Below, in pieces: positions 16,156 through 62,072 of a DNA stretch of 64,000 nucleotides. The position numbers and the translations under genes are program-made. Every line of letters starts with the position of its first letter. The first letter of the stretch is position 1. The notes below the pieces were generated by a model. That model did no database searches and was not told the DNA's origin. It saw only the letters and a program-made list of their open reading frames with translations. The DNA comes from Dudresnaya verticillata (taxonomy: Eukaryota): the NCBI GenBank assembly GCA_977862235.1, contig OZ374557.1, forward strand, positions 1,488,001-1,552,000, in the 5' to 3' direction.

Positions 16156-16186
16156 CCAATTTTGGCGCGGCTGCACGGCTATATAA
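16156..16186 (+). promoter_or_regulatory. Candidate CCAAT + TATATAA promoter for the antisense ORF of B
   Basis: CCAAT at 16156 and TATATAA at 16180, on the ORF strand about 530 bp before its ATG. Confidence 0.35.
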
Positions 16187-37305: not shown

Positions 37306-37346
37306 CGAACATACTTTCGTCTTCGACGTTATGCCGACATTCAATG

Positions 37347-37833
37347 TGTAGAGAACCGTTGCCAAGTGGCACTACAGGCTTGAACCGTTTCCAAGTGGCA
37401 CTACAGGCTTACTAGCTTGAAGCTTTTGTTATACAATTTAGAATTGTCAGCTCTACTCTAATCCAAGAAGATGTTCCGTTGCAGGAACAACTTCTTCCGT
37501 TGAAGACGTAACATCTTCAAGCCTGTCCCCGGAGATAGATGTTTTGAACTACCATGTCCCCGGGGGTAGTTGTTCTGAGGGCATGGCGGTTGGGGCTACT
37601 GTAGAAGATACCGTTTAAGAATAGAACAGCTACTTTATCCATACCGTTTAGAATCAGCAGTAGTGCTGTTCTTTATCAAACGCATAGAGTAGGCTCGGAG
37701 CTTTGGAGCAAGCGGCTCCGTAATGGAATATAAAAGCTCCGCCCTTTTCTCTCTCAAGGAAGAAAAGGGCAGAGGTCTTCGCATTGAGCACAAACAAGAC
37801 AGCACCCAACAAGTCAAGGAGGAAGTGATTATA
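37347..37833 (+). repeat. 5' LTR of Gypsy F (TGTA...TATA)
   Basis: Direct repeat of 42791-43276. It begins with a 29-bp tandem duplication. Confidence 0.95.
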
Positions 37834-38071
37834 GAAATTTCTTTTCCCTGCAGGAGACGCAATTTCCTTTACTATTGCTGTTGTCAAGTTGTCTACTCGT
37901 CAAGTGTTTCTACCTGTCAAGCGTTGTACCCGTCAGGTGCTACTATCGTTCAAGAGTGCTACTTGTCAAGTATTTCTATAAGTGGATTGTTTTGTAATCT
38001 ACTGGAACTGGTGTACATACGAAGCAATTGTACTACCTCTCAGTCGCCTTGGTTATTTTTGAAATAGCATC

Positions 38072-41000
38072 ATGCCACCGGTCACTCGTTCTGGAATTGA
38101 GAGCGGGCCAGGTCGCTCGGATTTTGGCACATCCAGTGCGCTGTTCGCACCCGTACAGCATCCTGTACTAAGAAGTGTCGACCCGCTGAAAGTCTCCGCG
38201 TTCTTACGGGAGCGGGAAAGATATGTAGATGAAGTCGAGGAGAAGAGCAGAGAAGCCCCAGGAATGAGCGTTGCTTCATTCAAGGTTTCTGTGGATAGGA
38301 GTCTGCTAATGACGATGCATAGCCTCGGTAGAATGGATTCTACTGCTAATTCTGTCGCGCTTGAAGATCCCACGTCCGAGCAAATCGAAGAATGGGTGAG
38401 GAGCATAGTGTGCAAAGCTAATGCCAAGGAAGTCAACCCTACCATAATTCAGGACACTCTGAAAGGCATAAGAATGCCTATGAACATTTCAGATCCAGAG
38501 GCTCGAATACTGGAATATGTCCATGATGTTTTTGAAAGACTGAATGGAGTTGGCTATTCTTCTTTCAGGGAGCGCAATCCTGAGAAGACAGTGAAACTAA
38601 TACAAGAACATGTCTACCCCCTCCATCTGAAAGCAGCTATGGCAGAGCACCTTGAATTTCAAGCTGGACTGAAGAAAAAGGTCAATGATTACGTATCTGT
38701 ACTTTGCAATGAGGCTGTCATTCAGGACAAGATCAGACCTACCAGGACGAGTGTTGAAAAGGATGATAAGGGAACAAAGAAGGCAAGCTCGTCCGGCTCA
38801 AGAAATGGCAAGCCGAAGACGGATGGACGTAAGTCAGCTGGAGCTTCTAAGTCTGGAAAAGGACCACAGAATCGTCGCGAACTTCTATGCTTGAATGAAG
38901 ATTGCAAGCGGAAGGGCATCAAGCACCCAGGCGGTGTTCGGCATTGCCCTAAGACGAGCACCGATGAAGCAAACAAACTAATACAGTCGTTCATATACGA
39001 AAGGGAAAGCAAGAAGGCTAAAAGTTGTGCGGATACTCAGTCTGACACACATAAGCAGCCTGAGGATAACAATTCTACACTCATGAGTGTAGTGTTCGCT
39101 GGATTGGTTTCGACTAGATTGTGTGCAGACGGGGGTTCTGACATCAATTTAATGCCACAAAATATATTCAAAGAGTTGTTGCAACGACGTGCACCCATGA
39201 AGGTCAAAAAGTTCGACCGTGCCCGTAAGTTCGGCCTTGCTGCTGCCGAAATGCATGTCGCATGTGACAGGGAAGTCACACTAAATATTGAACTACGAAT
39301 CCGCCATGGCAAAACGTTACTGATTCGAAACTTAAAATGGCTCGTGGCTGTAGACACAGTTGACGAACCACTACTCGGTCGTCCTATCCAAGAAGCGCTT
39401 GGATTAGATACGAGGAAGATTCTTGAAGCCGCATGCGACAGATATCAAGGCGAGGTTGATGCTGGTTTGGTGATGGAGGATGAGTACCAGGAGGTATCTA
39501 TCGCCCGCATTTTGTCGTCTGGTCTTTTTCATTCCGACCAGGGAGTGACGGGGGAGGTGCCCGATAGTCTTTCCGAGCAACGCACTGAGCTTGGAGAAGA
39601 CTCACCCGCAGAGTTGAAAACTGCATTTAACAAGATGTTGGAAACTGCTTCTGACAATGGTTTGAGCGCAACTGGAAAGTTGAAATTGGAAAAGCTGCTG
39701 GCAGCATATACGGATGTTTTCCGTGTGCGCCTTGGTCCGGGCCCCCCAGCAAAAGTAGAACCAATGCGGATCAACATCAAGCCAGGTTCTGTAGCCTACA
39801 TTACGAAGGCGCGGCGCTATTCTGCTGAACAGCGTGACTACATGAAGCGATTTGTCGGAAAGCTTTTAGAATACGGCATGGCCATCCCGAACCCAAATGC
39901 TGAGTGGGCATCCCCACTGCTACTCGTGCCAAAGCCTGGTACTAAAATGTACAGGCTAACTTTCGACCTTCGCATGGTCAATCAGTGTACTCAACCAATG
40001 GCCTGGCCAATGCCACATTTACAATCGGAGCTGTTGGACTTCGCAGACAGCTCTTGCTTTGCGAGTATAGATTTCTGTGCAGGTTACTGGCAGATGCCTC
40101 TACATTCCGAGAGCCAGCATTACCACAGTTTTCTAACACCTTCTGGTGTTTTCCAGCCTACAAGAACACTACAAGGAGGCATGAACGCAGTGCAGAACTT
40201 CCAGTCCCGAGTGGAGCCATGTTTTCAATCTATTCGTGGTGCAGTCAAGGCTTGGCTAGACGATTTTGCAGTGCATACCAAGGATGAAGGAGACCTTATA
40301 TCCTATCTGGAAAGGTTCTTCGCCATCTGTAGGGAAAAGAACCTGAAAATATCTGCAAAGAAGTCTGTGCTTTTCAGCACTTCCTTGGAATGGTGTGGGT
40401 ATGTGGTCGACAAGGGTGGTGTCACTTGTGACCCAAGACGTTTGAGTGGACTCAAGAATGCGTCTGTTCCAGAGAACGGCGCCGAGTTGTCACAATTTAT
40501 GAACTGTTTACAATGGATGTCGCAATATATTCCCGACTTTACTACTCGTGTGGCAACACTACCCGCAGTTCTTGAAGAAGCTTATACAAAATCGGGAAAG
40601 CGTACTTCACGGCCCATACAGGGCATACGACTTTGCAAATTGTCTTGGGGCCAAAAGCACGCTGAAGCCTTTAACGACCTTCAAGAACCGCTTCGAAATG
40701 CGGTGAAACTCGCGCATAGGGATCAAAAAAAGACTCTTGGCGTCTACACCGACGCATCTGATGAACACTGGGCGGCGGTAGTTACACAGTGCGATCCACC
40801 ATGCTTATAAAAGCCAATAGAAGAGCAGATGCATCAACCTTTGGCTTTCCTTGGGTCCGCATTTAATGAAACGCAGCAGCATTGGACAACCTTTGAGCGC
40901 GAAGCATATGCTGTGTATCAAGTTTTCGAGAAGATGGATTACATGTTCTCCTGCGAAGCAAATATTCATCTGTTCACGGACCACAGGAATTTTCTTTTTG

Positions 41001-42753
41001 TATACAACCCTGTTGCATTACGACCAAGCCTTGGAAGGCATATCATCAACAAGGTTCAGCGCTGGGCACTGTACCTTTCTAGGTTTATGTATACAATCGA
41101 ACACGTCGAGGGCAGCCGCAACATTACTGCCGACATGATGACACGATGGTTTGCTGGCTATCGAGGCAAACATAACCTTGCTAAACGTGTCACTCGTGCT
41201 ATAGAGGCCCAGGACCTTGTTCATTCTCCATATGAGAACACGTTTGAATGGCCGTCCCAGGAAATGTTACTGAAACCACAACAGTCCGCAGATAATGTTC
41301 CTACACGATTGAAGAAAGGAAAGGATGGTTTACTACGAGATAACACACGCATTTGGATACCTGATAATAATGTGGACTTGCAATTGAAGTTGTTAGTAAT
41401 ATCGCATTGTGGGGCAGGTGGACATGGAGGTGTGGAATCGACCTGGAGTACACTTAGGAAGCTGTACCAATGGAACAGTATGGAGGCCGATGTGAATGAG
41501 TTTGTATCAAATTGTTTGCACTGTATCATTGGGAAAAGTGGAAACCGCATTCCAAGTCCAACATCTATTACCCTTCACGGCACGAAGCCTAATGAAGTTG
41601 TTCACTTCGATTTCATATTTATGGGGGTTGGCATAGATGGTTTGAAATACTGCCTCATCATCCGAGACGATCTTTCGTCTTACTTATGGATATGTCCAAG
41701 TATGGCCGCGGATGCAGAAACAGTGTTGAAAGAGCTTTCAAGATGGATACGAGTATTTACGGCAATGAAATACTGGGTATCGGACCAAGGGTCGCATTTT
41801 CAAAATCAAGTTATGGAAACTTTGGCTAAGATCTACAAAGTTGAGCACCGGTTCACAGTTGCGTATTCGCCTTGGGTTAATGGTACGATTGAAGTTTGTA
41901 TGCGACATATTAAGGCCGCTTGCACGGCGTTACTCTCAGAACTCAAGCTTGGGCCACAAGATTGGCCACTGGTTATTGACACCGTGATGACGGCGCTGAA
42001 TGAGGCTCCACACCGGCGCCTAGGTAAGCGCATCGATGGGACGTACAGAACACCCCTCGAAGTCATGACCGGAATACTACCCAATCGCATCAACTTTGTG
42101 GTGCGACACCAAGAAGAGACAGAACCAGTCCCGATAAGTCAAGTCCGCGTGCATCAACTCATTAACATCAATAAGTTGCAGAATGTTTTAGAAGACATGC
42201 ACCGCGATGTGGCTAATAATGTCTCCAATAATAGGCAGAGGCAGATAGCGTATCACAACCAGAAGACAAACCTCGTTACGCCTAGCTTCACAATTGGCGA
42301 TTTTGTTCTAGTGCGCAGAGCGCAGAATAAGGGACACAAAATGATGTTTCGATGGGTGGGTCCGCGCCGTATTTCAAGGAATATTGGTGACATGGTTTAT
42401 GAAGTAACCGGGCTCATGGATAACAAGACTGAATTGTTCACGCCGCTAGGCTACTCCTCTACAAAGCCAGCTTGGATGGCGCTCCTGTTTCTAAAAATCT
42501 GATGAAGCAAGCCGAACATATCGAGACTAAGTTTGAGATGGTCGAGAAATTGCTGGATATCGGCGAGGTGTCCGACAGAATTTTCTTTCAAGTGCAGTGG
42601 TTAGGGCAGCCTGATACTACTGACTGGACGTGGCAGTCGTTGCAGCAGATGTATCAAGACATTCCGCAACGCGTAGAAAGCTTCCTACGAAAAACACGTA
42701 AGAAGCGTCTTGCGAAAAAGGCACTCAAAGAACTTGGCATTAAGGAGAAGTAA
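38072..42753 (+). pseudogene. pol: Gypsy F gag-pol polyprotein (one premature stop at 40808-10, one frameshift near 42440)
   Basis: CLNEDC..H..HC knuckle, CADGGSDIN (PR), YWQMPL and WLDD (RT), YTDASD (RH), HCGAGGHGG and SDQGSHF (INT), QVQWLG..DWTWQ (chromo). Confidence 0.95.
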
Positions 42754-42790
42754 TACTCACTAGGACTCCGCCCTAGCAAGTATGGGGCCA

Positions 42791-43276
42791 TGTAGAGAAC
42801 CGTTGCCAAGTGGCACTACAGGCTTGAACCGTTTCCAAGTGGCACTACAGGCTTACTAGCTTGAAGCTTTTGTTATGCAATTTAGAATTGTCAGCTCTAC
42901 TCTAATCCAAGAAGATGTTCCGTTGCAGGAACAACTTCTTCCGTTGAAGAGGTAACATCTTCAAGCCTGTCCCCGGAGATAGATGTTTTGAACTACCATG
43001 TCCCCGGGGGTAGTTGTTCTGAGGGCATGGCGGTTGGGGCTACTGTAAAAGATACCGTTTAAGAATAGAACAGCTACTTTATCCATACCGTTTAGAATCA
43101 GCAGTAGTGCTGTTCTTTATAAACGCATAGAGTAGGCTCGGAGCTTTGTAGCAAGCGGCTCCGTAATAGAATATAAAAGCTCCGCCCTTTTCTCTCTCGA
43201 GGAAGAAAAGGGCAGAGGTCTTCGCATTGAGCACAAACAAGACAGCACCCAACAAGTCAAGGAGGAAGTGATTATA
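42791..43276 (+). repeat. 3' LTR of Gypsy F
   Basis: Direct repeat of the 5' LTR, followed by AATG. Confidence 0.95.
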
Positions 43277-43516: not shown

Positions 43517-43900
43517 GAACACAGGCTTCCCGCGTTTCAGAATGTACTTTCAAAAACAGACTGAAATAAAACGCTTCCAAAGTACATGCGTTGGAAAGGG
43601 GAGCGTCCCCTGGGCACGCTGGTGCATACGGAGTAGAGAACTAAGCAATAGTTCGCGAGTTATGTTGGTTGGCGAGTTATGTTGGTTGGCGTGCTAACCC
43701 GGCAGTGAGTCTGAAATAATTAATTTTGGTGTAATTTCTGAGCTTTTTTAAGTCGGATTTTGAGGTAACCTAGGCTACTTCCATTGGCCCCTCACCGCGC
43801 AGTATACGCTGCCCCAACCGTGCAAAACTACTCGTCAGTTCAATGACGCTCTCCCCATGACATGCCAGAGTACTGCAGCACTGCCATGAATTCCTTTCCC
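43517..43900. repeat. Second copy of the putative DNA-transposon end
   Basis: Homologous to 3540-3905, with an extra 17-bp duplication (GAGTTATGTTGGTTGGC). Confidence 0.8.
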
Positions 43901-45148
43901 GGACTTACTCCGGTACAACTTCGGGCATTCGTCACCCAGCCGCTGCATGCTACACTCTCTACTTTCATGCACTCTCTGCTCTTCTCTAGGCGCCAGGACT
44001 TGCTCTGCGCAGTCGCACTCGCCCGCTACACTCTCCCTCCTCACCGACACATCGGCTCGTTGTCCTTCGCGGCAACCAAAAACTCCACCCAGGTATTGTA
44101 ATCCCTGTTTCACCAACGTTACAGCATGTGCTGCCCAGTGCGACGGCATTCATGTAGCGCTCTTCCCATTGTATACCGTTCTCTCCGTCGACCTACTCCA
44201 TGTGGTTTGGACTGAGCTCCAGTACTGAATTTTGTCCCACATTACCGTGAATTTGCCGTTGTCATAAGTCAGACCTCGTTCCGGACATCTCGTACTTCAC
44301 CCGTGCAGTTCCCTACACATGTAGCGAGCTGCAGCTCGCCAGACACCCCGGTCAAAACCACAAACACCCATTTCTAGTCATGCACTTGAACCAACTTCGA
44401 AAGTGCACTCAAAGCCGTCCCCCGTAGTAGTTCAAACAACGATTCCTTACTTGCGCCCGTTCCCCTCTTCAAGCGCCTCAGCATGGTAAACATACACAAC
44501 CGCTCCCGTACGCACTTTACCTGTAACTAAAATTCCTCAACTACCTTTACCCTAAACCTCAGCCCGCTTCAGACTCCGGGTCTTCTTCATCGACCTCCAC
44601 CGCCCAGCACCCTGAGAAAACTAGTATTCCCTCCAGCACCACCTTCACCGCCTCCCCAACTGTGACAGCATCCGCAATCATGACCCGTGCCCGCCCCACC
44701 AAGTCCAGACTAAGCGTGGCGTCACTGGTATGACGCGTGGCTCGCGCCCGAGCTTCTTCTAGCTCGGCGCGCATTCTCCGCACCTCCAGCACCAACGCTT
44801 CCGGTGCTTCATCGCAACTCTCCATCTAAGTCGTCTCCACCAACCCTCAAACCGACACTGTACCACTCCCTTTTATAGACGGAACCGGGCACCATTCTGA
44901 AGTTTAGTTGACCTCGCTTACACCAACTCTGCACATCTTTTCCCTATTGCGAAACCGCTGCAACGTCGGGAATCGTTAGCATGCAAACCGTTCTTGGTGC
45001 GTAGTTGTTATTATTTTAGCGGACGCGGCGAATCCCAATCGATACGAGTACCTGGTTGAGGAATGTTCACAATGTTTATCCTTGAGATTTTGCGCTTCTC
45101 TTCATGGACTTTGCGAACTGCTGTCTCATACTGCCGACGTTCTCGTGC

Positions 45149-46044: not shown

Positions 46045-49000
46045 TCTCCTACCCTTCGTGGTTGCGGAGAAACTCGCAGTCGACGTTCTCCTTGGAACTT
46101 CGTGGATGGACGCGCATTTACGAAGCATCGAGCTCAGCCCACGGAGGCTCATCACGAAGAGTGGAAGCACGATTCCGATTATCAATCGCATTGCTGGATC
46201 TGCTCAGCCCGCAATTAATTCGAAAAATCCGAAGCAGAAATCCGAGAAAACGCTATCGAAGCGACATCAACGCGAGCTCCACGATTGGGACCGAGACACC
46301 CGTACCATTCGTTTGAACCGCCGCGTCACAATACCGAGCTATTCGCAGAAGCTAGTCACCGTGACCTCGGAAGCACTCGGACTAATTCATATCGAACCGA
46401 AGCCTTCGTTACAACACCGACACGGAGCACGGTTAAAGAACGGGATACACGAAGTCAGTCCGAATCGCGAGTTTTCGGTGTTGATGGCGAACTTCACGGA
46501 TAAGCCTCGAGCCCCACCGAAGGGAACTGTCATCGGATACGCAGCTCGAAACCCGCTCGCGATTCTGACACCCGATCGCGAAGTCGCGGATTCGTTTGCC
46601 AAGGTGCTCAACATCTCTACGCTATGCGAGCACGACGACTCGAAGGCACCCGAAGAATCCGTATCCACGAAGGAAAAACGGCTCACGAAGGGCGCCGCGA
46701 CTGCAGCAGCAGAATCCAATTCGAGTTCCCGCGATTGGGAAGAACGCGTAGACCTTTCGAATATACCCGATGAAACTATGCGAAACGAGGTCCTCGAGAT
46801 GCTACGTAAGCACGAATCGATGTGGAACGGAGACCTTGGAACCATCGCAGCCACGGAGCATCGTATCGATCTACAACCCGGGACTCGACCTATTCATTCG
46901 ATGCCCTATCGTCAAGGGCCTGCAATACGTGAAATCGTCCGTAACGAAATCGACAGTATGCTCGAAGCCGGAGTAATCGAACCAGCCACCTCGGAATGGG
47001 CGTCCCCCGTAGTCCTCGCACCGAAGAAAGACGGAACACTTCGTTTTTGCGTAGATTACCGCGGACTTAATACGAAGACGCTATCCGACGCGTACCCACT
47101 TCCCCGGATGGAAGATTGTATCGATTCACTCGGAGACGCTTCGATTTTCTCGACACTCGATTGTAACAGCGGATACTGGCAGAATCCGGTTGCCCCGGAA
47201 GACCGCGAGAAGACTACGTTTACTTCGTTTCTCGGAACTTATCGTTATCTTCGTATGCCCTTCGGATTGAAAAACGCGCCCGCAACGTTTCAACGTGCAC
47301 TCGACATCATTCTATCCGGAGTCCGTTGGCAGTGCTGTCTCGTTTACCTCGATGACGTGATCGTCTTCTCCGCGAATCTTCGTGAACACATCGCGCATCT
47401 CGATCAAGTTCTCACGTTACTTCGTAACTCCGGGTTTCGCTCAAGATGAAGAAGTGCTTCCTTTTCCGAAAGCGAGTCGACTATCTCGGACACGTAATTT
47501 ACCCGGGGAAGCTGAGTATGGCCGAGAAGAGCTCCGAAGCATTCCGATACGCGAAGTTCCCGAAGACACTCACGCAAGTCCGTTCGTTCCTCGGCGCGTG
47601 TAACGTATACCGAAGATTCGTGAAAGACTTCGCGAAAATTGCGCGACCGTTGACGAGCATGACACGAAAGGACGCCGATCCCGACTACGAGAATCCCACG
47701 GAGGATCAGGTTACCGCATTCGAAACGCTCAAACGGAAGCTCGTGTCACCGCCGATACTACGGTTACCGCAACTCGGGAAAAGTTACATTATCGATACGG
47801 ACGCGTCTGCGTATCAACTCGGATGCGCGTTGCTACAGGAGCAAGATAACGAAGAATTCCAACCCGTGGGCTACTGGTCGAATTCGTTAAACGATGCCGA
47901 GAAGAACTACTTCGCAACCGAGCGCGAATGCTACGCAGTCGTATGGGCGGTTACTTCGTTGCGTCCGTATATCGAAGGGACCCGGTTCACCGTGCGTACG
48001 GACCACGATGCGCTCCGATGGCTTCTTTCTTTCACCGATTCGTCCGGGCGACGCACGCAATGGAGGCTTCGCTTAGCCGAATTCGACTTCGAAATCGTGT
48101 ATCGCCCCGGTCGCGTCCACCAGATTCCCGATGCCCTCTCGCGATTGCTACTTCCGCATCGCGAACAACCCGCAATCGACGACGAAGTTCCTACGTTTGA
48201 CTCGGATCAAATTGCAGCGAAGAACGAAGAACGTTTCCGCAACGACATTACGAAACCCATCGAAAACGAAAGAGACCCGGTTCTCATTACTACGCGATCC
48301 CGCAAAGGTCAATCGAAGCCCACTGCGATTCGCCACGACTCTACGGGAAAGACTACACCCGCGAAACGCGTACATCGAGCAGGCACTACGCCACGACCCA
48401 CGGAGGTCACCACGGGATCCGAACCCCACAATCATACGTGCCACGACGGCTGCGAACACGAACACGACGCAGAACTACGTGATGAATACGCAGGCCAAAA
48501 GGATGTCTACGATGACTGCGACTTATGGGACGATATCGATGACGATGATCCGTTTGACCTTTATCGAATTGACCCCAACGAAGAACCGAGTGACCTCACC
48601 GACGTGAAACCCGTTGACCTCCCTGCGCCGATTACGGTAACCGAAATCCTCGAAGGACAACGTATTGATTCGTTCTGCAAAACGGTGCAATCACGACAAT
48701 CGAAAACGAAGGATAGTCTCTTTCACGAAGATGGAGACGGTCTCCTGCGACGAACGCACCCAACGATTCGGAAGCTAACGCAAATCGTATTGCCCGAGAC
48801 GCTCCGACCGCGCTTGCTCACGCTGGCGCATCATTCGTTTCTCGCTGGCCACCCGGGGCAAAATCATATGTTCTACTCGCTTCGTGAAGCGTATTACTGG
48901 CCTTACATGGCCGCCGATATCGCATCCACGGTTCGTAACTGCAAATATTGCGCAAGGAATCGAATCCGTCTCCGAAGGAATCTTCACCGCTTGAAGCTCT

Positions 49001-50160
49001 TCCCCGCTACGCGCCCACTCGAATCGGTCGCGATTGACATCTTAGACCCGTTGCCACGAACGAGATCCGGACGCAAGTTCATTCTCGTGATTACGGATCG
49101 CTTTACGAAGTTGACCCAGGTGGCCACACTACGAGTAATAACCGCGTATCACGTGGCCGTTGCCTTTTGCGAAGTTTGGATATTCGAGTACGGACCGCCA
49201 GCCTCGGTGCTCTCGGACAACCGGAAACAGTTTACTTCGAAGTTCTTTCAGGCCGTCTGTCGCTTACTCGGGTTATCGAACGTATTCACTTCCGCGTATC
49301 ATCCGCAAACGAATGGACAAACCGAACGCTATAACCGCACTATCCTCGCGATGCTTCGTAACTACGTGAACGACCACCAAAACGATTGGGACCGCTACGT
49401 TTCCGCGTTAACGTATTCGTACAATTGCCACGTTCATCGGTCTACGAAGACAACTCCGTTCAATCTCGTTTTATCGCGACCGCCGCCCGAGTTCACCGTG
49501 AAACATCGCTCCCGGAAGCATCGACCAAAACCCACGGAGGACCTTCGCAACGATTTCGTTAAGCGACTCGATTTCGCCATCGATTCCGCACGCACTTCGT
49601 TACAGCGAGTTCAAAGTCGTTACAAACGCGACTTCGATAAGCGCATCCGCCACACGAAGAGCCGCGTCAAACCCGGAGACTACGTGTACCTCGATATCCA
49701 CGATGGGAAAACGAAACTTCCGAAGTTGAAATCCCTCGCGGAGGGGCCGTACAAAGTGCTCTTCAACGATACACGTACACTCGTGATCGATCGCAAGCGT
49801 CTCGTTGAACGCGTCTCCGCGGACCGCTGCATCTACGCGCCACCACCTACGAATTCGCGACCGTCGATTAAGCGACCCGAAGACATTGCGGAAAAGGTCA
49901 CCGAAGGCCCCGAATACGTTGTCGATCGCATCCTCGATCACTCGACCGACGACACCGGAAAATTCGTGTTTCGTATCAAGTGGGACGGCTACGCGACACC
50001 TACGTGGGAACCTCGTACGCACGTGTCCGAAGAACTCGTTTCGCGCTATTTCGCAAGGCTTCGAAGCCAACCGGACCCGCGTGATCCCGTGCTACTCGCC
50101 CACGAATGGCTCTCCGCCTGGGAACCCGAGTGGTTCCGTGGCCCCGACTTCGTGCTCTGA
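46045..50160 (+). pseudogene. pol: Gypsy D pol (5'-truncated): end of protease, RT, RNase H, integrase, chromodomain
   Basis: LAVDVLLG, RFCVDYR, YLDDV, DTDASAY, GHPG..C..C, QTNGQTER, GPY and YVVDRIL..IKWDGY..TWEP. One frameshift near 47432, where a G is lost relative to the copy at about 57750. Confidence 0.95.
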
Positions 50161-51056: not shown

Positions 51057-51896
51057 TGCATGTGAAATTACGAAGTCTCGATGACGCCGCCATTCGAGAA
51101 CCGAAGCTGTCATTAAGAATCCGTTTTGTCTCCGTGATTTCCGAGGTCTTCGCGGACTCCGAAGTCTAAGTCAATCGCGATTCGCAACTCTCGGTTTGTC
51201 GCAGTCAGACCATATCGAAATTCTGCGCTTCGTATTGCATCGTTTGCACGCAGGCCAGGCCAATTCTGCGAATGCCATCGTGGCGCGCGCGATCACGATG
51301 GAATTCGCATTACAGTGCGCACCCGATACGAAATCGCTGAGACCTTCGTGATCTTCCCGTTGTTTCCTGCGCGTAACGGAACCGAGGCCGACGACGCGCG
51401 TTCACCTACACATGCATCTCTGGCGCACTTCGCAACCGCCACCATACGTGAGGCGACCGTTCGTTGGCACCGAGGCCGTTACGAATCATTCGAGTACGAA
51501 CCGTCTCCCGCGTTGACGCGCATTCGTGCTCACGTAGTATTACTTAGCCAGTCGTCTGGCACAACCTCCGAGGGTTTCCGGCAACCAACTAGCGCCCGGA
51601 CCTCGGAGTCTTCGGTAATCGCTTGTTTCTTCGAGTTCGGTGTCTTCGTCTTCGTGACCGCGGATACGGTCGAGCCTCGCTTTCGATAGCCCCGCGCACC
51701 CGGAGTCATCCCCGGTGATCGATCGCTCGAGTTCTCCCTTCCGTACACGAATACGTTGACACCGTGGTCCTTCGTGTTGGTCGCTCCGCTCTACCACGCT
51801 ACCACCCCTTTTTGTTTATCCGATAGGCTACGAGGCCATTCGTTAGGCTCCGAGGCCATTCCTTACAGTGCGAGACTTCCCCGCGTCTCCGTGGAC
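51057..51896 (+). repeat. Probable truncated long 3' LTR of Gypsy D
   Basis: PPT-like GAGGAGGGGGCCG then TG at 51057. Homologous to 33328-35971 (minus strand). Confidence 0.55.
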
Positions 51897-51907
51897 TTCG
51901 TAATACC

Positions 51908-52393
51908 ACACCGGGACGGAGGTAAGAGGAATCGGTGCACGGGGCTGGCGAGGGGAAACCGTAAAGGAGTATGAGGGTAAGGCTTAGGGTAAGTCACTTT
52001 CCCCAGGGTTGCGTACCCATTTACTGTAGGGCTCGCGGTGGCCACCCATTAATATACTGGAAGATACGCCCCGCGGTCCTGTCCGTGTGGACCAGACCCC
52101 AATGGTTCTGGTCCACCAGGTGGGTCCGGCCCTACTGGTCCCGGTCACCGTTGCGGAAATGCTCGGCATTCCAATTGGCCGGCTGACACTACGTACTGTA
52201 CAGCATTAGAATTACCTAATTACAAATAAATCAACTACTTGGCTCCTATTGGTGGTGCGCGCAGACTCCAGCAAGGCGTACAGTGCTACTGTGTCGCTGC
52301 ACTCCCGTTCGGTTTTTGGCGCCAGCTCACCGGTGCGCCGGGCGCGAGTCGGCTCAACCGTCGTCGGCACTCCACAACGGCCGCTTCACCACA
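51908..52393 (-). repeat. Partial 3' LTR of Gypsy C (U5 end missing)
   Basis: Matches 59109-59596. Starts TGTGGTGAAG on the minus strand, right after PPT GGAGGGGGGTC. Confidence 0.9.
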
Positions 52394-52408
52394 GACCCCC
52401 CTCCATAA

Positions 52409-55267
52409 ATGACTACACGTCCTCGTGCGCCGCGGGAGTTGGGTACGGACTCCGCTCAGGTGCACCGCCATGTTCCATCATCCGCTCCCTTACCAACTGG
52501 TGCATCATCCTGCACGTCAACCAACGCGTTCTTCCCATCCGGTGTGCCGCTTGCCATGGCGGGTTGCAGCACTGACCAGGGGCGGTCCCCTTTTCAACCG
52601 ACGTGGCATGCGCAGTCGACGGGGGAGGTGCCGGCCGCGGAGGTGCTCACGCAACAAGACGAAGCGCGGGCGACGACCGTATTGGAGTCTCCGACTGGGG
52701 CGGCCGGGGTCCCAGGACGTCCGGCGAGCCCGAGGGTGCCACGCTGCCAACTCAGGGGCGAGAGCCCGATGGCGAACACACCGCTTCCGGATCGTCAAGT
52801 AGGAGAAGGGGCGCATTGGCCTGGTAGGGGTAACACCGAAATGGAGTACCGCGTCAGCGGCGAGCCACGACAGGAGGGCGTCACACCGGTTGCGCCGGAG
52901 CAGCAATGGTCGACTCCGCATGGTCGGACGGGGAACGTTCATCCACTGCCGTCACCGACGAGGGGTGGCGAGATTACTCCACCTGGGCCAAGGTCGTACA
53001 CTCCAGCTGGGTATCGGGGCCTCGCGAGCTCAACCGAGTACAACGATGAGGCGACGTGGTTGGGTCGCGAATACGACCACCGCACAGGTCGGCGTCACCG
53101 CACCGAGGAGGAGCGCGACATGGTCCGCCTCCCCCTTCCCGTTTCGGTGTTCGTGATGGATTACGCCGAGACGCTGGATGGGCGCTGCTATAACGCCGTG
53201 ACGGAGTCCAGTGGGCTGATCAACCACAAGTGGTTTCCGAACCGGCGGGAAGAAATGTGGAAGTCCCGCTGGATTCACTCCGCTTGCCAGACACGGACTC
53301 CTCGTGGGTGTGACATCGTATGGGTGCGGTGTCAGGAAGAAGAGGATTATGCCGAGAAGGTGTTCCGCTTATTGGTGTCCGCACATCGGCTGCAGGATCG
53401 TCCAGTGGGTGTGGAGTTCTTGTGCTACACCAAACCGTACGATCATGGCGTACATTGGTTTGGCAATCCGCAACGGTGGTCCGACGACGCAGCGAAGGAA
53501 CACCGACTCCGTTCACGGGATCGAGATGGGCGCTGTTTGGGCAGGGTTTTACTCCACACGTGGAATACCCACGAATTCTTCCAAGTGCCTGCGTCATCGC
53601 ACCGCAGCCTCTACCTTACCGCGCCGGAGTGGTGGGCCGAATACGAGGTCACCCGCTGGCTTTCGGTGCCGACTCCGACCGTGGTAGCGTACTTCACGAA
53701 TCGGTTCCTTCGACACCATAATTGGAAAGCGTTATACCCAGGCGGAGAGAAGTCAATCGATCACCCACAGATGGCCGTTTGGGAATTAATCCTGCGTTCG
53801 GAGTGGGCGATGTTCGTGCTCTTTTCGTGGCTACAAGTTACCTATCGCGGTGTGCGTGCCAACACGAAGATGACCGATTGGAGAGCCTTCCCAAGAGACA
53901 GTACCGAGCCGGAGGGTGGCGACTGTGGGCGCATTTTCGAGTTGCCCGCCAAGGTCGTCTCGTTCATACACCAAATGGGAGTAGCCGCGCTCGTGGAGGG
54001 GACCGAGTATCCGTTGGAGCGCGTGCAACGGTTGTTCGCGATTCACGCGAACACCAACTGGAAGAAGACACCGGGTTTCGTTGGCTACCATTGGGACGAC
54101 GACCGGGTGTTGTCCGTTCCGCCGCTGAGCCCAGGGTGTGGTCTGCTTTACTATTTGTCGGCAGGGGACCCCAATCCGGTGTGGTTGCTTGATGAGGAGA
54201 TGGCCAACTGGCATGTGATGCGATCCCACGCAAGGCACTATCCGGTCACGGAGGGGCCACCGAGGCGGACGGGACACCGCGAGTGGGGTATGCCGTCTGG
54301 GGCACGTGCGCGTGGCGGGAGCCCCTTGGCGGATCAGGAAGAAGTTACACCCGTGGGAATGATAGGCATCGAGCCAACGCGTGAAGACCCGAGGGTGTTG
54401 GTGCCCCGCGAATCGGCAGAGGTTGAAGAGAGTAACCGCGATCGCGCGGCGGTACCGCCGACTAAGCCCGTAACGGTGTCTCCAAAAGGAGCAGGGGCGC
54501 AGGGGACGAAGGTTGTGTTGCCGCCCCCGGCATCACCGGCGCACACAGATGCGGTTCCACTTAGGACAGTGGTGCGGCCGAGGGTTAGTGAGGCACGTGC
54601 TCCACCAACTACGGGAGAGAAGGTTACCAGCGTGGAGACCCAGCCAGCAGCGCGGGCGGCCAAGACCGCTCATCTGGGACCCATTGGAACGCCAGAAGAC
54701 TCAGATGCGGAAGTGGCTACCACACCAATGGGGAAAAGAAAGGCGTCTACACCGTTGGGAGTGAATCCGTCCGCCACAATGCAGGGAGGTACACCAAAGC
54801 GGGGCGACGTGGTCAAACCGACGTCGACGGAGTCCAGTGACTCCATCGTCTGCGTCACACCCTTGGATCCGGCTGGTACCGCGGCAAGGCTTACCGATTC
54901 CGTCACGGTCAAGAAAGAGAAGGACACCGATGTGGAAATGGGGACGTGGTGCGACGCGGATTTGCGTGTCGATGGGGCTGCTCTGCAGCGACTCCGCGAA
55001 GGGTGTAGAGACGCGGGTATGCCTCTTCCAGCGTCGGCAAACGAGGCCATTAACACCGCAGTGCTGTGGGTCGGGCGTCTGGTGCGTCTGCGGCGCACCA
55101 TTCGAGCCTTGCGTCGTCGCATGGCAGACACCGGTAGGAGACTCACCATGATTACCGCAAGGGTGTATGATGAGGATATTCCCGACTTGGAGGAGAGTGC
55201 GGCAAAAGAGGAGGATACGGAGGCTGACCTGGCGCCACCAGCGAAGCGTCCGCGAAATGCAGTGTAA
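52409..55267 (+). CDS. Intact 952-aa antisense accessory protein of Gypsy C (same unknown family)
   Basis: Uninterrupted ORF antisense to pol. Core APEWWAEYEV..PTPTVVAY..WELILRSEWAMFV; C-terminal coiled coil and PPAKRPR (NLS-like). AATAAA at 55288. Confidence 0.85.
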   Translation: MTTRPRAPRELGTDSAQVHRHVPSSAPLPTGASSCTSTNAFFPSGVPLAMAGCSTDQGRSPFQPTWHAQSTGEVPAAEVLTQQDEARATTVLESPTGAAGVPGRPASPRVPRCQLRGESPMANTPLPDRQVGEGAHWPGRGNTEMEYRVSGEPRQEGVTPVAPEQQWSTPHGRTGNVHPLPSPTRGGEITPPGPRSYTPAGYRGLASSTEYNDEATWLGREYDHRTGRRHRTEEERDMVRLPLPVSVFVMDYAETLDGRCYNAVTESSGLINHKWFPNRREEMWKSRWIHSACQTRTPRGCDIVWVRCQEEEDYAEKVFRLLVSAHRLQDRPVGVEFLCYTKPYDHGVHWFGNPQRWSDDAAKEHRLRSRDRDGRCLGRVLLHTWNTHEFFQVPASSHRSLYLTAPEWWAEYEVTRWLSVPTPTVVAYFTNRFLRHHNWKALYPGGEKSIDHPQMAVWELILRSEWAMFVLFSWLQVTYRGVRANTKMTDWRAFPRDSTEPEGGDCGRIFELPAKVVSFIHQMGVAALVEGTEYPLERVQRLFAIHANTNWKKTPGFVGYHWDDDRVLSVPPLSPGCGLLYYLSAGDPNPVWLLDEEMANWHVMRSHARHYPVTEGPPRRTGHREWGMPSGARARGGSPLADQEEVTPVGMIGIEPTREDPRVLVPRESAEVEESNRDRAAVPPTKPVTVSPKGAGAQGTKVVLPPPASPAHTDAVPLRTVVRPRVSEARAPPTTGEKVTSVETQPAARAAKTAHLGPIGTPEDSDAEVATTPMGKRKASTPLGVNPSATMQGGTPKRGDVVKPTSTESSDSIVCVTPLDPAGTAARLTDSVTVKKEKDTDVEMGTWCDADLRVDGAALQRLREGCRDAGMPLPASANEAINTAVLWVGRLVRLRRTIRALRRRMADTGRRLTMITARVYDEDIPDLEESAAKEEDTEADLAPPAKRPRNAV

Positions 55268-55457
55268 GCGTAGTAATGCCACTTGTCAATAAAATCTTGT
55301 GATTTTTGTGAGCCCCCTTCCACTGGCGGAGGGGAAGTGGAATAACACCACTGTGGAGTGAGTCCCGAAATGGCGGGGATACCCTCCACCATACAAGGCT
55401 TTGCGTCAGGTTGACAACCACCTGATACCAGAAGTGGTTGCGCGCTTGCCGGCGATT

Positions 55458-55603
55458 CACCAATATGGAGTAGAGCCCCTTGGGCAAGGGTTCTGTGGTT
55501 CCAGAGTCCAGAGGTCATGCCCATTTTGTACCAACGCCAAGTCACCAATACGGAGTAGGGCCCCTTGGGCAAGAGTTCCGTGAACACGGAGTCCACAGGT
55601 CAT
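55458..55603. repeat. About 60-bp direct repeat, period about 85 bp, between the antisense ORF and the pol stop
   Basis: CACCAATAYGGAGTAGRGCCCCTTGGGCAAG...AGGTCAT occurs twice. Confidence 0.8.
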
Positions 55604-55649
55604 TACCGATTTTGCCAAAACCCCTACTGCGTGGGTGAGTAGCGACTGG

Positions 55650-57490
55650 CTATCGACGCGTGGGAGTTCTGCGACGTCGAGCTGCAGCGGCTGCCGTGCG
55701 TTTTCTATTCCAATAGCGGTGTATGAAGTTTTGCGGCAACTCCTCAGCGGGTTCATACGTGTACTGGTCTGGTGGGTAGCCGTACCAACGCACCTTGTAG
55801 GTCATACCCGTGGGTTCTTCGCGGTGTCCCACGATCTGCTCGATTACATACTCCGTGTCTACATCAATTGTCTCCGGCACGGGGGCAGAAATACCGCCTG
55901 GCGTTTGGGGAGTTACAGTAATACCACCTGGTGTTTGGGGTACTACTGTGGTGCCTCCCGCTTGCTGGGATACTGTACCGTCCTCGTCGGTGTGTGGCGT
56001 AACCGGCGGAGCCAATAGCGGCGCCGGTTGCACGGGAACTCGAATTGGTACCTTAGTGATGCGATCGATGTTGATGGGAATCAGGACGCCATCCTTCTTG
56101 ATAGTTACTACAGTATCCGTTGCGGTGTGCACCTCGTAGGGGCCCGTCGATCTTGGGAGGAGCTTCTTCATTTGCTCCGCAAATTCGCCGACGCGGTCAG
56201 GGCCTTGACCCAATCGGTCGCGTTCCTTCCGTTCGGTGGGCCGTAGATTACGCGGCGGGCGATCGACGTAGACTTGATCGCCACCGCGAACCACCGGTCG
56301 GAAACGCACCTTACGGTCGAGGAGGGCCTTCGACTTCAACTGGGCTGTAGTTTGCTTGGTCTGCGCCTTCTGTATGGCATAGCGCAAACGCCGCATGGTT
56401 CCCCGCTTTTGGAGTACGGACGTCATACGCCCCTCCGTAACGGTTTCTTCCAACTCCACAGGGGTGCCACGCACAATAATATCCGATGGGTGTCGAGTTA
56501 ACACCAAGTCAAAGGGAGTACTATCCGTAATCCGGTGTACCTGCATCTTATAGGAGTAGGTCAACGGCTGTAGGTATAAATCCCAATCGGTGTGGTGATC
56601 CTCGACGTAGTGTCGGAGGTGCTGCGCTATGGTTTTGTTAAACCGCTCGGCTTGCCCGTTGGTTTGCGGGTGATAGGCAGCGGTCAACAAATGCCGCACT
56701 CCGAGTAGGGCACAGACAGCGTCGAAGAACTTCGCCGTGAACTGTCTTCCATTGTCGGTGAGTACAAATTTAGGTGCGCCATACGCATACACCCAATGGT
56801 CTAAAAATTCGTTCGCCACCACGACGGCTGTAATCGTCCGTAACGGAATGCACCGTGTTAGTTTAGAAAACCGATCGGTGATGACCAGTACAAAGACGTA
56901 TCCCCGTTTGGTTTTCGGCAGCGGGCCCAGTATGTCCGTAGCGACAAACTCCAGTGGGCCACTGGCGGGAAATAGCTTCATGAACTTCTGATGCTAAAAC
57001 CGCGAGCCCTTTGTTTTGACACATGAGCGGCAACTCCGAACAGTCTCGAATACTTCGTTAGCCATATGTGGCCAATAGTAGTCTCTCCGTAAGGTGTATT
57101 ACATTTTAATTCCGCCAGGGTGTCCCGACATGAGGGTGTAGTGGGCAAGATACAGGACCCTGCCGCGCATCTGTTGCGGTACCACCGTTTGGAGTGCGCC
57201 GTCGAGGGCAGACTTGCGCACAAGAAACCCATGTCGGTCGTAGTCAAATTGTGATCCAGGGGATCCCACCGATTCGGCTTTAAGCGTGCAGAAAGTATCT
57301 GTTGTTTGAGCGGCTATGAACTCCTCACGGGTAAGGGTCTCATTGCGCATATCCTCTTGTTGGATGACCGTTTGCCGGATTGGAGTGGGTGGTACTGTAT
57401 CCTTTTCAGGCGTAGTATCAGTTTCGGTGTCTCCACTTTCAACGCCTAGGACAAGGCTGCTTGCGGCATCAGGCTGCTGGGTCTGTTTCC
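55650..57490 (-). pseudogene. pol: Gypsy C integrase and chromodomain
   Basis: GHPGG, DILGPLP, TDNGRQF, QTNGQAER, GPY and YVIEQIV..YKVRWYGY..TYEP. Stop at 57099 and frameshift near 56980. Confidence 0.93.
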
Positions 57491-57624
57491 TACAGGTATT
57501 GCCGCTCGAGGTACTCCCTTCGGTCTACGAACTAAGCTCTACCACCCCGGTGCCGTGTGAGATCACTCCTTATTGGGATTGCCGGATCAGCTCTCCTTAC
57601 AGGTGTGCCTTTCACTTCACCACA
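57491..57624 (+). repeat. 134-bp U5-end fragment of the family C LTR, inverted relative to element C
   Basis: Same boundaries as 9439-9572. The CA end abuts a D-family RT. Confidence 0.9.
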
Positions 57625-58420
57625 GGGAACTTCGCGTATCGGAATGCCTCGGAGCTTTTCTCGGCCATACTCAGCTTCCCCAGGGAAATTAAGTGTCCGA
57701 GACAGTCAACGCGATTTTGGAAGAGGAAGCACTTCTTCATATTGAGCGAAACCCCGGAGTTACGAAGTAGCGTGAGGACTTTATCGAGATGCGCGATATG
57801 TTCACGAATGTTCGCGGAGAAAACGATCATGTCATCGAGGTGAAGGAGGCAGAACTGCCAACGAACTTCGGATAGAATGATATCGAGTGCACTTTGGAAC
57901 GTAGCGGTCGCGTTTTTCAAACCGAAAGGCATACGAAGATAACTATACGTTCCGAGAAACGAAGTAAACGTAGTCTTGTCGCGGTCTTCCGAGGCAACCG
58001 GAATCTGGCAGTACCCACTGTTACAATCGAGTGTCGAGAAAATCGAAGCGTCTCCGAGTGAATCGATACAATCTTCCATCCGGGAAAAGGGGTACACGTC
58101 CGATAGTGTCTTCGTATTGAGTCTTCGGTAATCCACGCAAAAACGAAGTTTTCTGTCTTTCTTCGGTGCGCGTACTACGGAGGACGCCCACGCCGAGGTG
58201 GCTGGTTCCATTACGCCGGCTTTGAGCATACTGCAGATTTCGTTACGGACGATTTATCGTATTTCGGGCCCTTGATGGTAGAGCATCGAACGAATAGGAC
58301 GTGTTACGGGTTATAGATCGATCCGATTCTCCGTGGCTGCTATCGTTCCGAGGTCTCCGTTCCACATTGATTCGTTCTTACGTAGCATCTCGAGGACCTT
58401 GTTTCGCATAGTTTCGTCGG
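57625..58420 (-). pseudogene. pol: RT fragment of a second family D copy
   Basis: Reverse-complement match to about 46765-47561; RFCVDYRRLN and HLDD. Confidence 0.92.
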
Positions 58421-58909
58421 CTATAAAATTCGTCAAGCTAAAATTGCACCACACTAACACGGATGGGGCACGTTATGCTGACTGCGTGCATGATCCAACA
58501 TTCGCGGAGACTTTGTCTTTTGAAAGTAGTAAATGAAACATAACTGGGCCGTTCAGTAACTCGAACATTCAAAGAGCCACGTCTGGCACCGCTCTGAACA
58601 GGATTTCTGTGTTGAAAGAGGTCTATCAGTTTAAATAGAAGCCGAGTGGAATAATGGTTCCCTGATATACGTAAAAACGCACTTCTACACGTAGTAAGGC
58701 TAAGGCGCAGCACCAAACATGACGGGAAATGGACTGGTATAGCTGACTACCACTGGAACTTTAATTATAGGATCAAAGACCGCGTTAAAGCGCTCCCACT
58801 TGGATACGTTCGCAGACCGTTTTCACACTGCGCAGTGAATGGCACCACGGACGTCCTTCCCTTTTAACTACCACAAATGCCTATTCTGAGACAGTAATCC
58901 AATGTTAGT

Positions 58910-59596
58910 TGTGGTGTAGTGAAAGGCACACCTGTAAGAAGAGCTGATCAGGCAATCCCAATAAAGGGTGATCTCACTGTGGCACACTCACACGGCATCG
59001 GGTGGTAGAGCTTAGTTCGTAGACCGAAGGGAGTACCTCAAGCGGCAGCACGTGTAAGGAGTAAAGGGACGCAACAGACAAGGGGGAAGGTACAGTGCCA
59101 GGGCAGCTACACCAGGACGGAGGTAAGAGGAATCCGTGCACGGGGCTGGCGAGGGAAACCGTGAAGGAGTATGAGGGTAAGGCTTAGGGTAGGTCACTTT
59201 GCCCAGGGTTGCGTACCCGTTTACTGTAGGACTCGCGGTGGCCACCCATTAATATACTGGGAGATACGCCCCGCGGTCCGGTCCGTGTGGGCCAGACCCC
59301 AATGGGTCTGGTCCACCAGGTGGGTCCGGCCGTACTGGTCCCGGTCACCGTTGCGGACATGCTCGGCATTCTCATTGGCCGGCTGACACTACATACTGTA
59401 CAGAATGATTATAATTACCTAATTACAAATAAATCAACTACTTGGCTCCTATTGGTGGTGCGCGCAGACTCCATCAGGGCATACAGTGCTACTGTGTCAC
59501 TGCACTCCACTTCGGCTTTTTGCGCCAGCTCACCAGTGCACCGGGCGCGAGTCGGCTCAACCGTCGTCGGCACTCCACAACGGCCGCTTCAACACA
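58910..59596 (-). mobile_element. Solo LTR of family C (687 bp)
   Basis: Ends TGTGGTG...CAACACA, flanked by TTAGT/TTTGT (4/5 TSD match). It covers both 51908-52393 and the 134-bp fragments. Confidence 0.85.
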
Positions 59597-60833
59597 TTTG
59601 TGTACAGTATTGGCTAACTTTTAGTATTATAACTCTAACTTAGAGTGGATAGCATGTTCGGCTCCATACGTATTTATTGGACCCTAAGTAGCAGGGGTCC
59701 CGCATTAATCTGGGAATGGTGTGTGATTTTCGTTATACCCATTTTTGGGTCTTTCACAGTACCGCCGTTGTCTTTTCCCTGCCCGTATACAGGCCCTATT
59801 CGCACGACGATTAACTCTGCGTTGTAGGGTTGGCCTTCCCTTTTTCCTTGGTTATGGGTACCACACGCATTACACGTCTCTAGGACCATCCCGTTTCCCT
59901 TTTCTTTGAGGCACCGCCCACAATGAGTATAGGGTCCCCTGGACAGCTGTCGCACCGTTTTATCCGCAACTCCCTGGCCAGGAGCCATTCTACCACAGGA
60001 GGGCAAGCCCAGAGTTCGTGTTCATTTGGCTCGATTGGCGCCAAACAGGCGAGCAGGTTAGCGCACGGGTCCTACAGTACTGTAACCAATTGGCCACTGT
60101 TCCACAAATACAGTCATAGTTCGAGTGATGTTGTACTTTTATTGCGTCTTAACGTGCGCAGTTGCGCGGGCGATTAAGGCCCATATGCAGGCACACGCCC
60201 TACCAACCAGCTATCTACTGACGGGCTTACACCCGTAATCTGGAGGCAGTCCAGCCGGCTCTATGAGAAGAATGGGCAAACAACCCCGGTGGGGAAAAAT
60301 CCTTGAAAATGTAGAACCATGGGACCTGGCGGGAGTCGAACTCGGTTTCCCGGAATCGACCGCGCAGCGGTGAACCACTGCACCACCCGTCCGCCTCCGC
60401 GGGCGGATGTGCTGCTGGAGCAATGTTCTGTAAGGAGTGTAATGTTTTCGTTAATTTGGTCTGAAATCTGATGCCGTAAACCCTCATTTACTGTAGCAGC
60501 TTAGCAAACAGTAGTAGAAGCCAACTTGGAGAATAAATTCGCTCGGCGGCACTGCAAAGACCGGGTTACTCTGCCCGAGCAGCTCGAAGAACAAAGGGGA
60601 GGACCAAAGGACGGTGAAGGGACAGAAAGATAGTTGGAACTGAGGTAGCGCAGTGCATGGGGAAATGCTCGCAACAAGAACAGCAGTTTGCCAGGAGAAA
60701 AGTGCACAGTGCTGCACAAGACATGAGAGACAGCTGGGAGACATATTGGTTCGTTAGCTACTGGAGATCCTTTTAGGTGTAGGCTTGTGTGAATCGTTTC
60801 TCGTCTTCGGCATCGGCATTTGTTTCTGGGCGT

Positions 60834-62072
60834 ATGCAAAGCAGATCTCCTATGGGGCCGCAAACTTCGTCTGAATCGGCAGCACCGATCACTTGTGCCA
60901 GCCTGCGCGGACCAGCCGGGCTCTTGTCATCTTCATCCGCATATCACCTGGCACAACCGAGGACGTACCCACTTTCGTTCACTCAGAAAGGGTCAGGAAA
61001 CGAAAAATCGTTTCATGTCGCATTTCGTTCCTACCCATTCCCACCCGCCAAAACGCCTCTCTGGCACCCGCTCCCACCACTGCCGCCTACAAAAGATGCT
61101 AATCTACCCAATGTGTCAGCGTCATCCAGATTTACAGATCTTCGCAAGCGTTTTCTGCATAGATGGCGGCGGGAAGGCTCAGGTCAAGCTGCTCTCTCAG
61201 GTGCCGTTATGACAAGTGCTGAGACGAATCGAGGTTTCTGTCATGTCAGTGACGGCCAGAAAATGGACTCGTTACGTTCCGCGATTGGCACCCGGAAAAG
61301 AATGCGCTCTCCAGCGACATGTTCAGCAGCCCAGGATCCGTCATCTTCTTTTAACTTTGTACAAGGAGATCCAGGGCTACCATTGCCTCAAGATGTGTCT
61401 TTGTGCGTGCATGAGAAAGAGCTGATGCAGCAGAATGGCTCTTCACGTGTATGGCCAGTCTCACATGCGGCGAAAAAGACTCGTGTAGATGGCTGCGAGT
61501 GCGGATTCAGGCCAATTCCTCAGAGGTCTCACCCCGTTCAGAGGAAATCGATAGGCCGCTCATGCCGTGAAATGGGTACTGTCCAAGATCATGTCCAGAA
61601 AGTGCGTACCACGCTCCCAGACAAGACAGCTCATCAAGCCGTCAAAGACCGTATCCAGAGTTTAAAAGTGCGTCGGCGGATGCTGGAGGAAAGGGCGCTG
61701 GACGAAATATGTATTGTTGCAGCGGCATTGGGACCGTCGAATATTATCAAAGAGGAACTCTTGCAGCTCAAGACAGACATGGAGAAACTTACTAGACAGG
61801 GCGTTCGGAACAGCGTGCGCCTTGTCTCTCGGCGCATGAAGGGTGTTTCATCGCGGAGGAATGCGGAGGTCAGCTTGCACCTTGACATGTTCCCAGCGGG
61901 CCTCATTCGGGAGTTACAATTAATAGTGATGCATGAAAATGGGCAGCTAAGAATTCGCTCATCTGTTCAGCTTTCGCAACTTCGCGCCGAGCTGAAACAC
62001 ACAATGCTGGAGAGTATGGGAAGCTCGCGATCCTTGTCCTGTCGTGGAACAGGTATGGTTTCAGGACTATGA
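60834..62072 (+). CDS. Hypothetical protein with a C-terminal NET/ET (extra-terminal)-like domain
   Basis: Open ORF of about 412 aa from the first ATG. EELLQLKTDMEKL...VRLV...EVSLHLDMFPAGLIRELQLIV resembles the ET consensus. Confidence 0.55.
   Translation: MQSRSPMGPQTSSESAAPITCASLRGPAGLLSSSSAYHLAQPRTYPLSFTQKGSGNEKSFHVAFRSYPFPPAKTPLWHPLPPLPPTKDANLPNVSASSRFTDLRKRFLHRWRREGSGQAALSGAVMTSAETNRGFCHVSDGQKMDSLRSAIGTRKRMRSPATCSAAQDPSSSFNFVQGDPGLPLPQDVSLCVHEKELMQQNGSSRVWPVSHAAKKTRVDGCECGFRPIPQRSHPVQRKSIGRSCREMGTVQDHVQKVRTTLPDKTAHQAVKDRIQSLKVRRRMLEERALDEICIVAAALGPSNIIKEELLQLKTDMEKLTRQGVRNSVRLVSRRMKGVSSRRNAEVSLHLDMFPAGLIRELQLIVMHENGQLRIRSSVQLSQLRAELKHTMLESMGSSRSLSCRGTGMVSGL

Follow-up and report, generated by a model that had tools for sequence, protein, structure and literature searches.

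What is a long open reading frame (ORF) doing on the strand opposite to the genes of a retrotransposon, between pol and the 3' long terminal repeat (LTR), and what might its product do for the element? The question is raised by a 64,000-nucleotide stretch of Dudresnaya verticillata DNA (contig OZ374557.1, positions 1,488,001 to 1,552,000 of the forward strand), which we call the window and number from its first letter. The ORF lies in element A, a rearranged remnant of a chromodomain-bearing Ty3/gypsy element. It runs antisense to that element, contains a conserved core domain, ends in a basic motif and belongs to a protein family whose members occupy the same place in three elements of the window. 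We give a probability of about 0.45 to the reading that a chromodomain Ty3/gypsy element carries it as an antisense accessory gene, with a product that regulates its own element or protects it from silencing. The parts of element A that bear on this are the following.

51908 to 52393, minus strand: remnant of the 3' LTR of element A, 486 of 687 bp, with 199 bp on the R/U5 side gone and 93% identity to 59109-59596
52396 to 52404, minus strand: polypurine tract (PPT) of element A, GGAGGGGGG, 2 nt ahead of the TGTGG of the LTR
52409 to 55267, plus strand: antisense accessory ORF of element A, 952 amino acids (aa), a stop-free frame
53051 to 54148, plus strand: conserved core domain, mostly helical, with conserved D302, R307, E311, R366, R368, E389, P423, Y428 and E465
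54956 to 55213, plus strand: hairpin of the pattern helix-C(x)6-8P-helix that continues as a parallel coiled coil, a predicted homodimer
55235 to 55255, plus strand: PPAKRPR, a monopartite motif resembling a nuclear localization signal (NLS), recurring at the C-termini of relatives
55288 to 55293, plus strand: AATAAA, which contains TAAA, with two GTAA between it and the stop region
55650 to 57490, minus strand: end of the pol gene of element A (linker, integrase and chromodomain), its zinc-finger region broken by two in-frame stops

The LTR of A ends at 52393 (minus-strand sequence TGTGGTGAAG), and the element has the TG..CA LTR and the PPT of chromovirus-type Ty3/gypsy elements. Its integrase matches the Pfam families rve (E = 1.7e-12) and Chromo (E = 6.8e-11), with the chromodomain C-terminal, and is separated from the antisense ORF by a spacer of 382 bp. 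Two 73-bp direct repeats, 82% identical, occupy 55457-55614 in this spacer. Tandem repeats also occur in the corresponding region of Retand elements (PMC11963269).

The ORF is almost certainly a protein-coding accessory gene. Its frame has 0 internal stops, compared to 16 to 29 in each of the other five frames, and the longest stop-free run in 500 order-2 Markov copies of its DNA averaged 296 codons, with a maximum of 588. GC contents at the three codon positions of the core are 0.60/0.46/0.70, resembling those of pol. That all 952 codons stand open beside a pol with 2 stops in 613 codons, a density at which 3.1 stops would be expected (P ~0.045), is a weak sign of retained coding. The first-pass annotation of this DNA placed the start beside the PPT and 16 bp from the LTR boundary at 52393. 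Both placements agree with our analysis: the minus-strand PPT spans 52404-52396, and 15 nt lie between the LTR edge and the ATG at 52409, if the first ATG is the one used. The distance is conditional on the start codon: the bases around the first ATG form a weak initiation context (T at -3) and those around M50, at 52556, a strong one (gccATGG), with an out-of-frame ATG at 52470 between the two; an in-frame TAA stands immediately 5' of the first ATG. The protein comprises a Pro/Gly-rich N-terminus (residues 1-210), the core (~215-580), a low-complexity linker (581-845), the hairpin and coiled coil (850-935), an acidic patch and the NLS-like end. A median of 46.5 residues precedes the core in relatives, and only 2 of 48 exceed the 246 found in A.

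Two other elements in the window carry a related protein.

16715 to 19042, plus strand: homolog B, a protein of 775 aa whose gene runs antisense to the chromodomain integrase at 19804-21150
1703 to 3572, minus strand: homolog C, broken and spread across three frames; it runs antisense to the integrase at 3-627, which has a chromodomain from 1219

The antisense placement between pol and the 3' LTR, which in A reads LTR/PPT, then ORF (+), then chromodomain integrase (-), has the same arrangement in B and C. The LTR edge and PPT of element B are at 15905, and its pol has the order protease, reverse transcriptase (RT), RNase H, integrase. The window has four chromodomain integrases, and an antisense family member follows three of them; the fourth belongs to a chromovirus-type element at 46106-50160, the pol of which contains one frameshift. 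Integrase identity among A, B and the 46106 element is 43-49%. In the core, B and C show 17-24% identity to A, and pairwise BLAST of A against B gives only E = 0.003. The homology of B, asserted in the first-pass annotation, is nevertheless genuine: a profile of the family from which A, B and C were left out finds B at E 4e-25, and the same profile finds C at E 6e-14, in the frame 2790-3572. A profile of any two of the three also ranks the third first among the non-training segments (1338 segments), which 0 of 1000 local shuffles equalled.

Element B is itself enclosed by a plus-oriented LTR pair (14300-14687 and 32652-33039) with a perfect GAAAA target-site duplication, together with a copia-like gag/integrase. 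We rejected this pair as the LTRs of B, given its plus orientation and the PPT that precedes 32652. The enclosing element has a short ORF after its 5' LTR and an antisense ORF of 277 aa at 31594-32427, which has a Cys-rich end and no Pfam match and falls outside the A/B/C family. An 86%-identical repeat at 3540-3939 and 43517-43934, which lacks TG..CA ends, overlaps homolog C on its 5' side.

The family extends well beyond the window. A full HMMER search with the A core returned 117 clusters at E<=0.001, 28 of them at <=1e-10, with 25-45% identity. The top match is the Gracilariopsis chorda hypothetical protein PXF39757 with four further accessions; these are 93-97% identical to one another and lie on different contigs, as a mobile gene would show. 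This match and the intronless genes suggest a red-algal host. Judged by these sequence matches, the A ORF belongs to a conserved family that is maintained between elements and is not a one-off capture. Word-indexed homolog searches with the A and B cores gave no match, an exact-sequence look-up of six window proteins gave no identical entry, and the scanned metagenome and viral contigs yielded no relatives; nor did any relative carry a fused part of pol or gag. Across the 123 members scanned, the core falls within no Pfam family, and the PADLOC and Pfam matches among relatives are scattered coiled-coil ones, each in 1 to 3 of the 123; a DUF3723 match in the ESM Atlas, at 0.81, is in the chance range. 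B and C sit on long branches in a quick tree of 45 cores, and for both reasons we draw no order of events from it.

Given the family alignment, AlphaFold2 predicts a mostly helical core with a confidence score (pLDDT) of 86.5 and a predicted TM-score (pTM) of 0.88 over 385 residues; with three sequences only, the pLDDT was 32. No PDB chain matches the core profile (best E 0.3), and Foldseek of the model on PDB and BFVD gave nothing at E<=0.001. VIA-align against 48,161 chains reached a best Z of 3.7, at a root mean square deviation of 4.3 with 101 aligned. The modeled core is therefore matched to no solved structure and is a candidate new fold, although novelty is not thereby proven. Residue conservation, counted in the 42 long cores out of 117, is extreme at some positions: R368 is present in 42/42, R307 and Y428 in 41/42, and E311 in 40/42, with D302 kept in 38/39 and E465 in 34/35. 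Homolog C deviates at several conserved positions. A has no membrane helix (maximum KD19 1.18); the median KD19 of the family's cores is 1.2, and 8 of 45 cores reach at least 1.8.

The C-terminal part of the protein appears to hold two further modules, for which we counted the 36 of 117 relatives in which the end of the core is present and 100 aa or more follow as a tail, leaving out the other 81. A hairpin precedes the coiled coil in 17 of these tails; one reversed control came up at E 0.0097, in a single round of the search. Two copies of A residues 850-935, modeled without use of an alignment, form a parallel coiled coil over residues 884-916, on which each partner's first helix sits as a cap for the other; this backs the coiled coil already noticed near the C-terminus. 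The homodimer score is 0.38, compared to 0.01 for the best control, with contact agreement of at least 85% between runs and pLDDT of at least 74. In calibration the mark was reached by 21/30 microbial homodimers and 0/23 monomers, and among eukaryotic proteins by 17/29 homodimers (1/7 of those without an older solved relative) and 0/30 monomers. This segment of A is thus predicted to homodimerize. We take the geometry of the dimer to recall helix-loop-helix (HLH)-zip or RIIa-type D/D modules, a likeness that profile and member scans do not support, neither module being matched; nor did A or 18 hairpin segments give a bZIP match.

The second module is the terminus itself, where PPAKRPR occupies residues 943-949 and is followed only by NAV. 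The motif recurs among relatives, K[KR]x[KR] being found in the last 15 residues of 13 of the 36 tails against 0.33 expected, and the A product is probably nuclear. For B, the end of which reads EVIDLMDSDSD, a SUMO-interacting motif (SIM) had been suggested. The EVIDL and its acidic residues are present, but a SIM at the level of the family is weak, since the strict pattern [VI][VI]D[LVI] occurs in 3/36 tails against 1.2 expected (P ~0.12). Among seven looser patterns, chosen post hoc, two were enriched (3/36, 2/1000 shuffles; 6/36, 14/1000) and the remaining five showed no enrichment. A SIM of canonical form is absent from A, and the SUMO acceptor pattern psi-K-x-E, in 7/36 tails against 5.5 expected, is not enriched.

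Signals for a transcript of its own flank the A ORF. The AATAAA reported after the stop is at 55288, 20 nt downstream, and a T/GT-rich stretch follows it; the window has 17 AATAAA on both strands together (0.008 per 60 nt). UAAA and GUAA are the dominant poly(A) signals of the red alga C. merolae (PMC6413133), and both are present <30 nt from the A stop. On the other side, an AT-rich CAAATAAAT at ~52222 occurs in both A-family LTR copies and the next 183 nt are free of ATG, so that from its sequence a plus-strand start of the A transcript in the 3' LTR is possible. The layout of B differs: its ATG is 809 nt from the LTR edge, with an internal TATA, TATATAAG, at 16180. Of the window's 1852 gaps between ATGs, the stretch ahead of B (16063-16714; 653 nt) is the longest, and ATG was absent from 19/5000 shuffles of the 534-nt B leader. 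With its internal TATA and ATG-free leader, B speaks against an LTR promoter as a design of the family. HBZ, the antisense protein of HTLV-1, is a short bZIP factor whose promoter lies in the 3' LTR. The HBZ-like design that the first-pass annotation proposed fits less well, given the internal promoter signature of B and the negative bZIP search; antisense ORFs of the type of gene23 in the maize element Grande are closer.

If the gene is an accessory regulator of its element, a separate plus-strand mRNA would begin in U3 of the LTR for A and at the internal TATA for B, and would end at AATAAA. The protein would pair through residues 850-935 and enter the nucleus by means of the NLS-like end, where core dimers would bind a target that might be the element's own DNA or chromatin. 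The outcome would be anti-silencing or trans-activation that keeps the element expressed against host silencing, by analogy to Grande gene23, VANC and the Athila accessory proteins. A bolder form of this proposal, also drawn from analogy and in our view rather unlikely, is that red-algal chromoviruses carry an ancient, fast-evolving, dimeric nuclear anti-silencer that is family-specific and of new fold, an independent LTR counterpart of VANC, the core of which would be a new nucleic-acid- or chromatin-acting domain.

Several observations weigh against a role of this kind. The core has no Pfam or PDB sequence match and no direct tie to chromatin; it is near neutral, with a median net charge of +2, and its conserved R, D, E and Y residues would equally suit an enzyme or an RNA-binding site. 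What supports the dimer is a model score rather than binding. The terminal NLS motif is missing in 23 of the 36 relatives and in B, which also gives no hairpin match. Nineteen of the 20 clusters looked up (of 117) are unnamed, and linkage to LTR elements is known from the window members only. Finally, the element at 46106-50160 has no family member in the ~890 bp after its pol, so the accessory gene is not universal among chromovirus-type elements; this one can serve as a reference for elements that do without the gene.

An alternative is a role in the replication cycle, either a Vpr/Rev-like nuclear passage of the pre-integration complex or element RNA, or guidance of integration together with the chromodomain integrase. 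The conserved terminal NLS and the linkage to integrase in three elements are consistent with this, and such a role has been suggested for similarly placed antisense proteins (PMC7264820). Separate antisense expression, however, breaks the tie to gag-pol stoichiometry, and a sister chromovirus-type element does without the gene; we consider the idea unlikely. We would put still less weight on an HBZ-like brake, in which an LTR-driven dimer sequesters host transcription factors in an Id-like manner through its HLH/coiled-coil end and damps transcription of the element. The start of the A ORF 16 nt from U3 would suit it, as would the AT-rich element with its ATG-free run in both LTR copies and the predicted dimer, presumably of HLH-zipper geometry with no basic region. 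Against it stand the internal promoter signature of B, the failure of the profile and member scans to give an HLH or bZIP match, and the 350-aa core, which is the most conserved part and would go unaccounted for.

That core might instead be a new-fold enzyme, acting for example on nucleic acid or chromatin marks and reaching the nucleus as a dimer, a proposal partly compatible with the regulatory reading and about as improbable as the brake. The polar residues that are near-invariant in the 42 long cores, and the size and compactness of the modeled domain, would fit an active site, but there is no known catalytic motif, C departs at several near-invariant positions, and the conserved residues may be buried salt bridges. 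It is very improbable that the frame has no function, as a shadow or as a once-captured host gene useless to the element. The A copy is a rearranged remnant and the codon-position GC of the first 210 codons is flat, yet those codons are stop-free in only 14/5000 shuffles; moreover, there are 117 conserved clusters, the same place is occupied in three deeply diverged elements, and the fold is confidently predicted and the NLS conserved. An accessory gene that acts on its own element remains our preferred reading.

The remainder of element A shows how far the copy has decayed.

57490 to 57625, plus strand: U5-end piece of an A-family LTR, 136 bp, inverted relative to A
57625 to 58425, minus strand: RT fragment of a foreign family, not the RT of A, 89% identical to 46762-47561
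58910 to 59596, minus strand: full 687-bp A-family LTR, probably solo, with flanks TTAGT/TTTGT

Copy A is without gag, protease and RNase H and is therefore not capable of autonomy. We rejected 51908 and 59596 as the LTR pair of one intact element, the left LTR being truncated and the right one probably solo, with no PBS-like sequence seen beside it (58910-59596); because the copy is rearranged, the 93% LTR identity gives no age. An Rfam scan of 51800-59700 gave no match. The 136-bp U5 end occurs twice (9438-9573 and 57490-57625, 96% identical) and is joined to unrelated DNA at one point, with ..CTACAG on one side and GT.. on the other; this shared junction has the look of a splice acceptor, or of a rearrangement that happened more than once.

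The window as a whole is a nest of LTR-retrotransposon pieces. At 36859-37346 a PPT and LTR edge (GGAGGGGGGTCGTGT, minus strand) closely resemble those of A and are followed by a pyrimidine-rich stretch, which a Ty3 element at 37347-43276 interrupts; there is no family match on either side. Amid the nested elements is an intronless gene of the bicarbonate/borate-transporter family (11835-13610; PF00955, E 2.7e-129). An ORF at 7780-8718 matches DUF7869 (E 2.9e-11) and is probably a piece of a DNA transposon, and a 412-aa ORF at 60834-62072 has no Pfam match.

The role of the antisense accessory genes of LTR-retrotransposons is an open question (PMC7264820), in part because most such ORFs vary too much for alignment (PMC6317226). 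The family described here is deep, with a confident model, near-invariant residues and two C-terminal modules, and so makes function directly testable. Should the protein counter silencing, it would help account for the abundance of chromodomain Ty3 elements in seaweed genomes, and 'hypothetical' seaweed genes of the A family are probably transposon cargo. A survey of plant elements describes antisense ORFs as highly heterogeneous, and its available passages do not mention red algae (PMC6317226). We found no paper on an antisense ORF in a red-algal LTR-retrotransposon in the open literature without supplements, and subscription papers could describe the family. The family and the predicted core fold appear to be new; the antisense accessory design is already known.

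Among known systems, the env-like aORF-3S proteins differ from A, which is antisense and has no membrane helix. HBZ is alike as an antisense, nuclear, dimerizing accessory protein at the 3' end (PMC11963269, PMC7264820), properties of which the nuclear location and the dimer are predicted here, and the HBZ analogy for antisense ORFs has been published in both of those papers. It differs in that the A family has a large core, no bZIP match and, in at least one homolog, the signature of an internal promoter. The antisense TRP28 proteins of Retand constitute a lineage-wide accessory domain with a suggested regulatory and DNA-binding role, their carrier is not a chromovirus, and in the passages available they are reported from flowering plants only (PMC11963269). 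They have no sequence match to the A family, and none of its 123 members matched TRP28 (PF04195), plant mobile domain or SMC at E<=0.01. VANC proteins of VANDAL transposons and Athila accessory proteins, which are predicted to form coiled-coil oligomers (PMC13547354), likewise combine a globular domain and a coiled coil on a transposon accessory protein. No sequence likeness to them was found, VANC being MAIN-like and from DNA transposons of dicots, and anti-silencing is attributed to the A family by analogy.

The aORF-3R class, defined as antisense ORFs between pol and the 3' LTR, includes maize Grande gene23 and ORFs of rice RIRE2, Silene Retand, bean PvRetro13 and Botrytis Boty (PMC7264820). 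Grande GENE23 is nuclear, of unknown function, and has its own upstream promoter (PMC7264820), a layout like that of homolog B. The window genes resemble this class in placement, antisense strand and conservation between elements; they differ in belonging to another protein family, with a product of ~950 aa and a 350-aa core of confidently predicted, unmatched fold, carried by chromodomain elements of a probable red alga.

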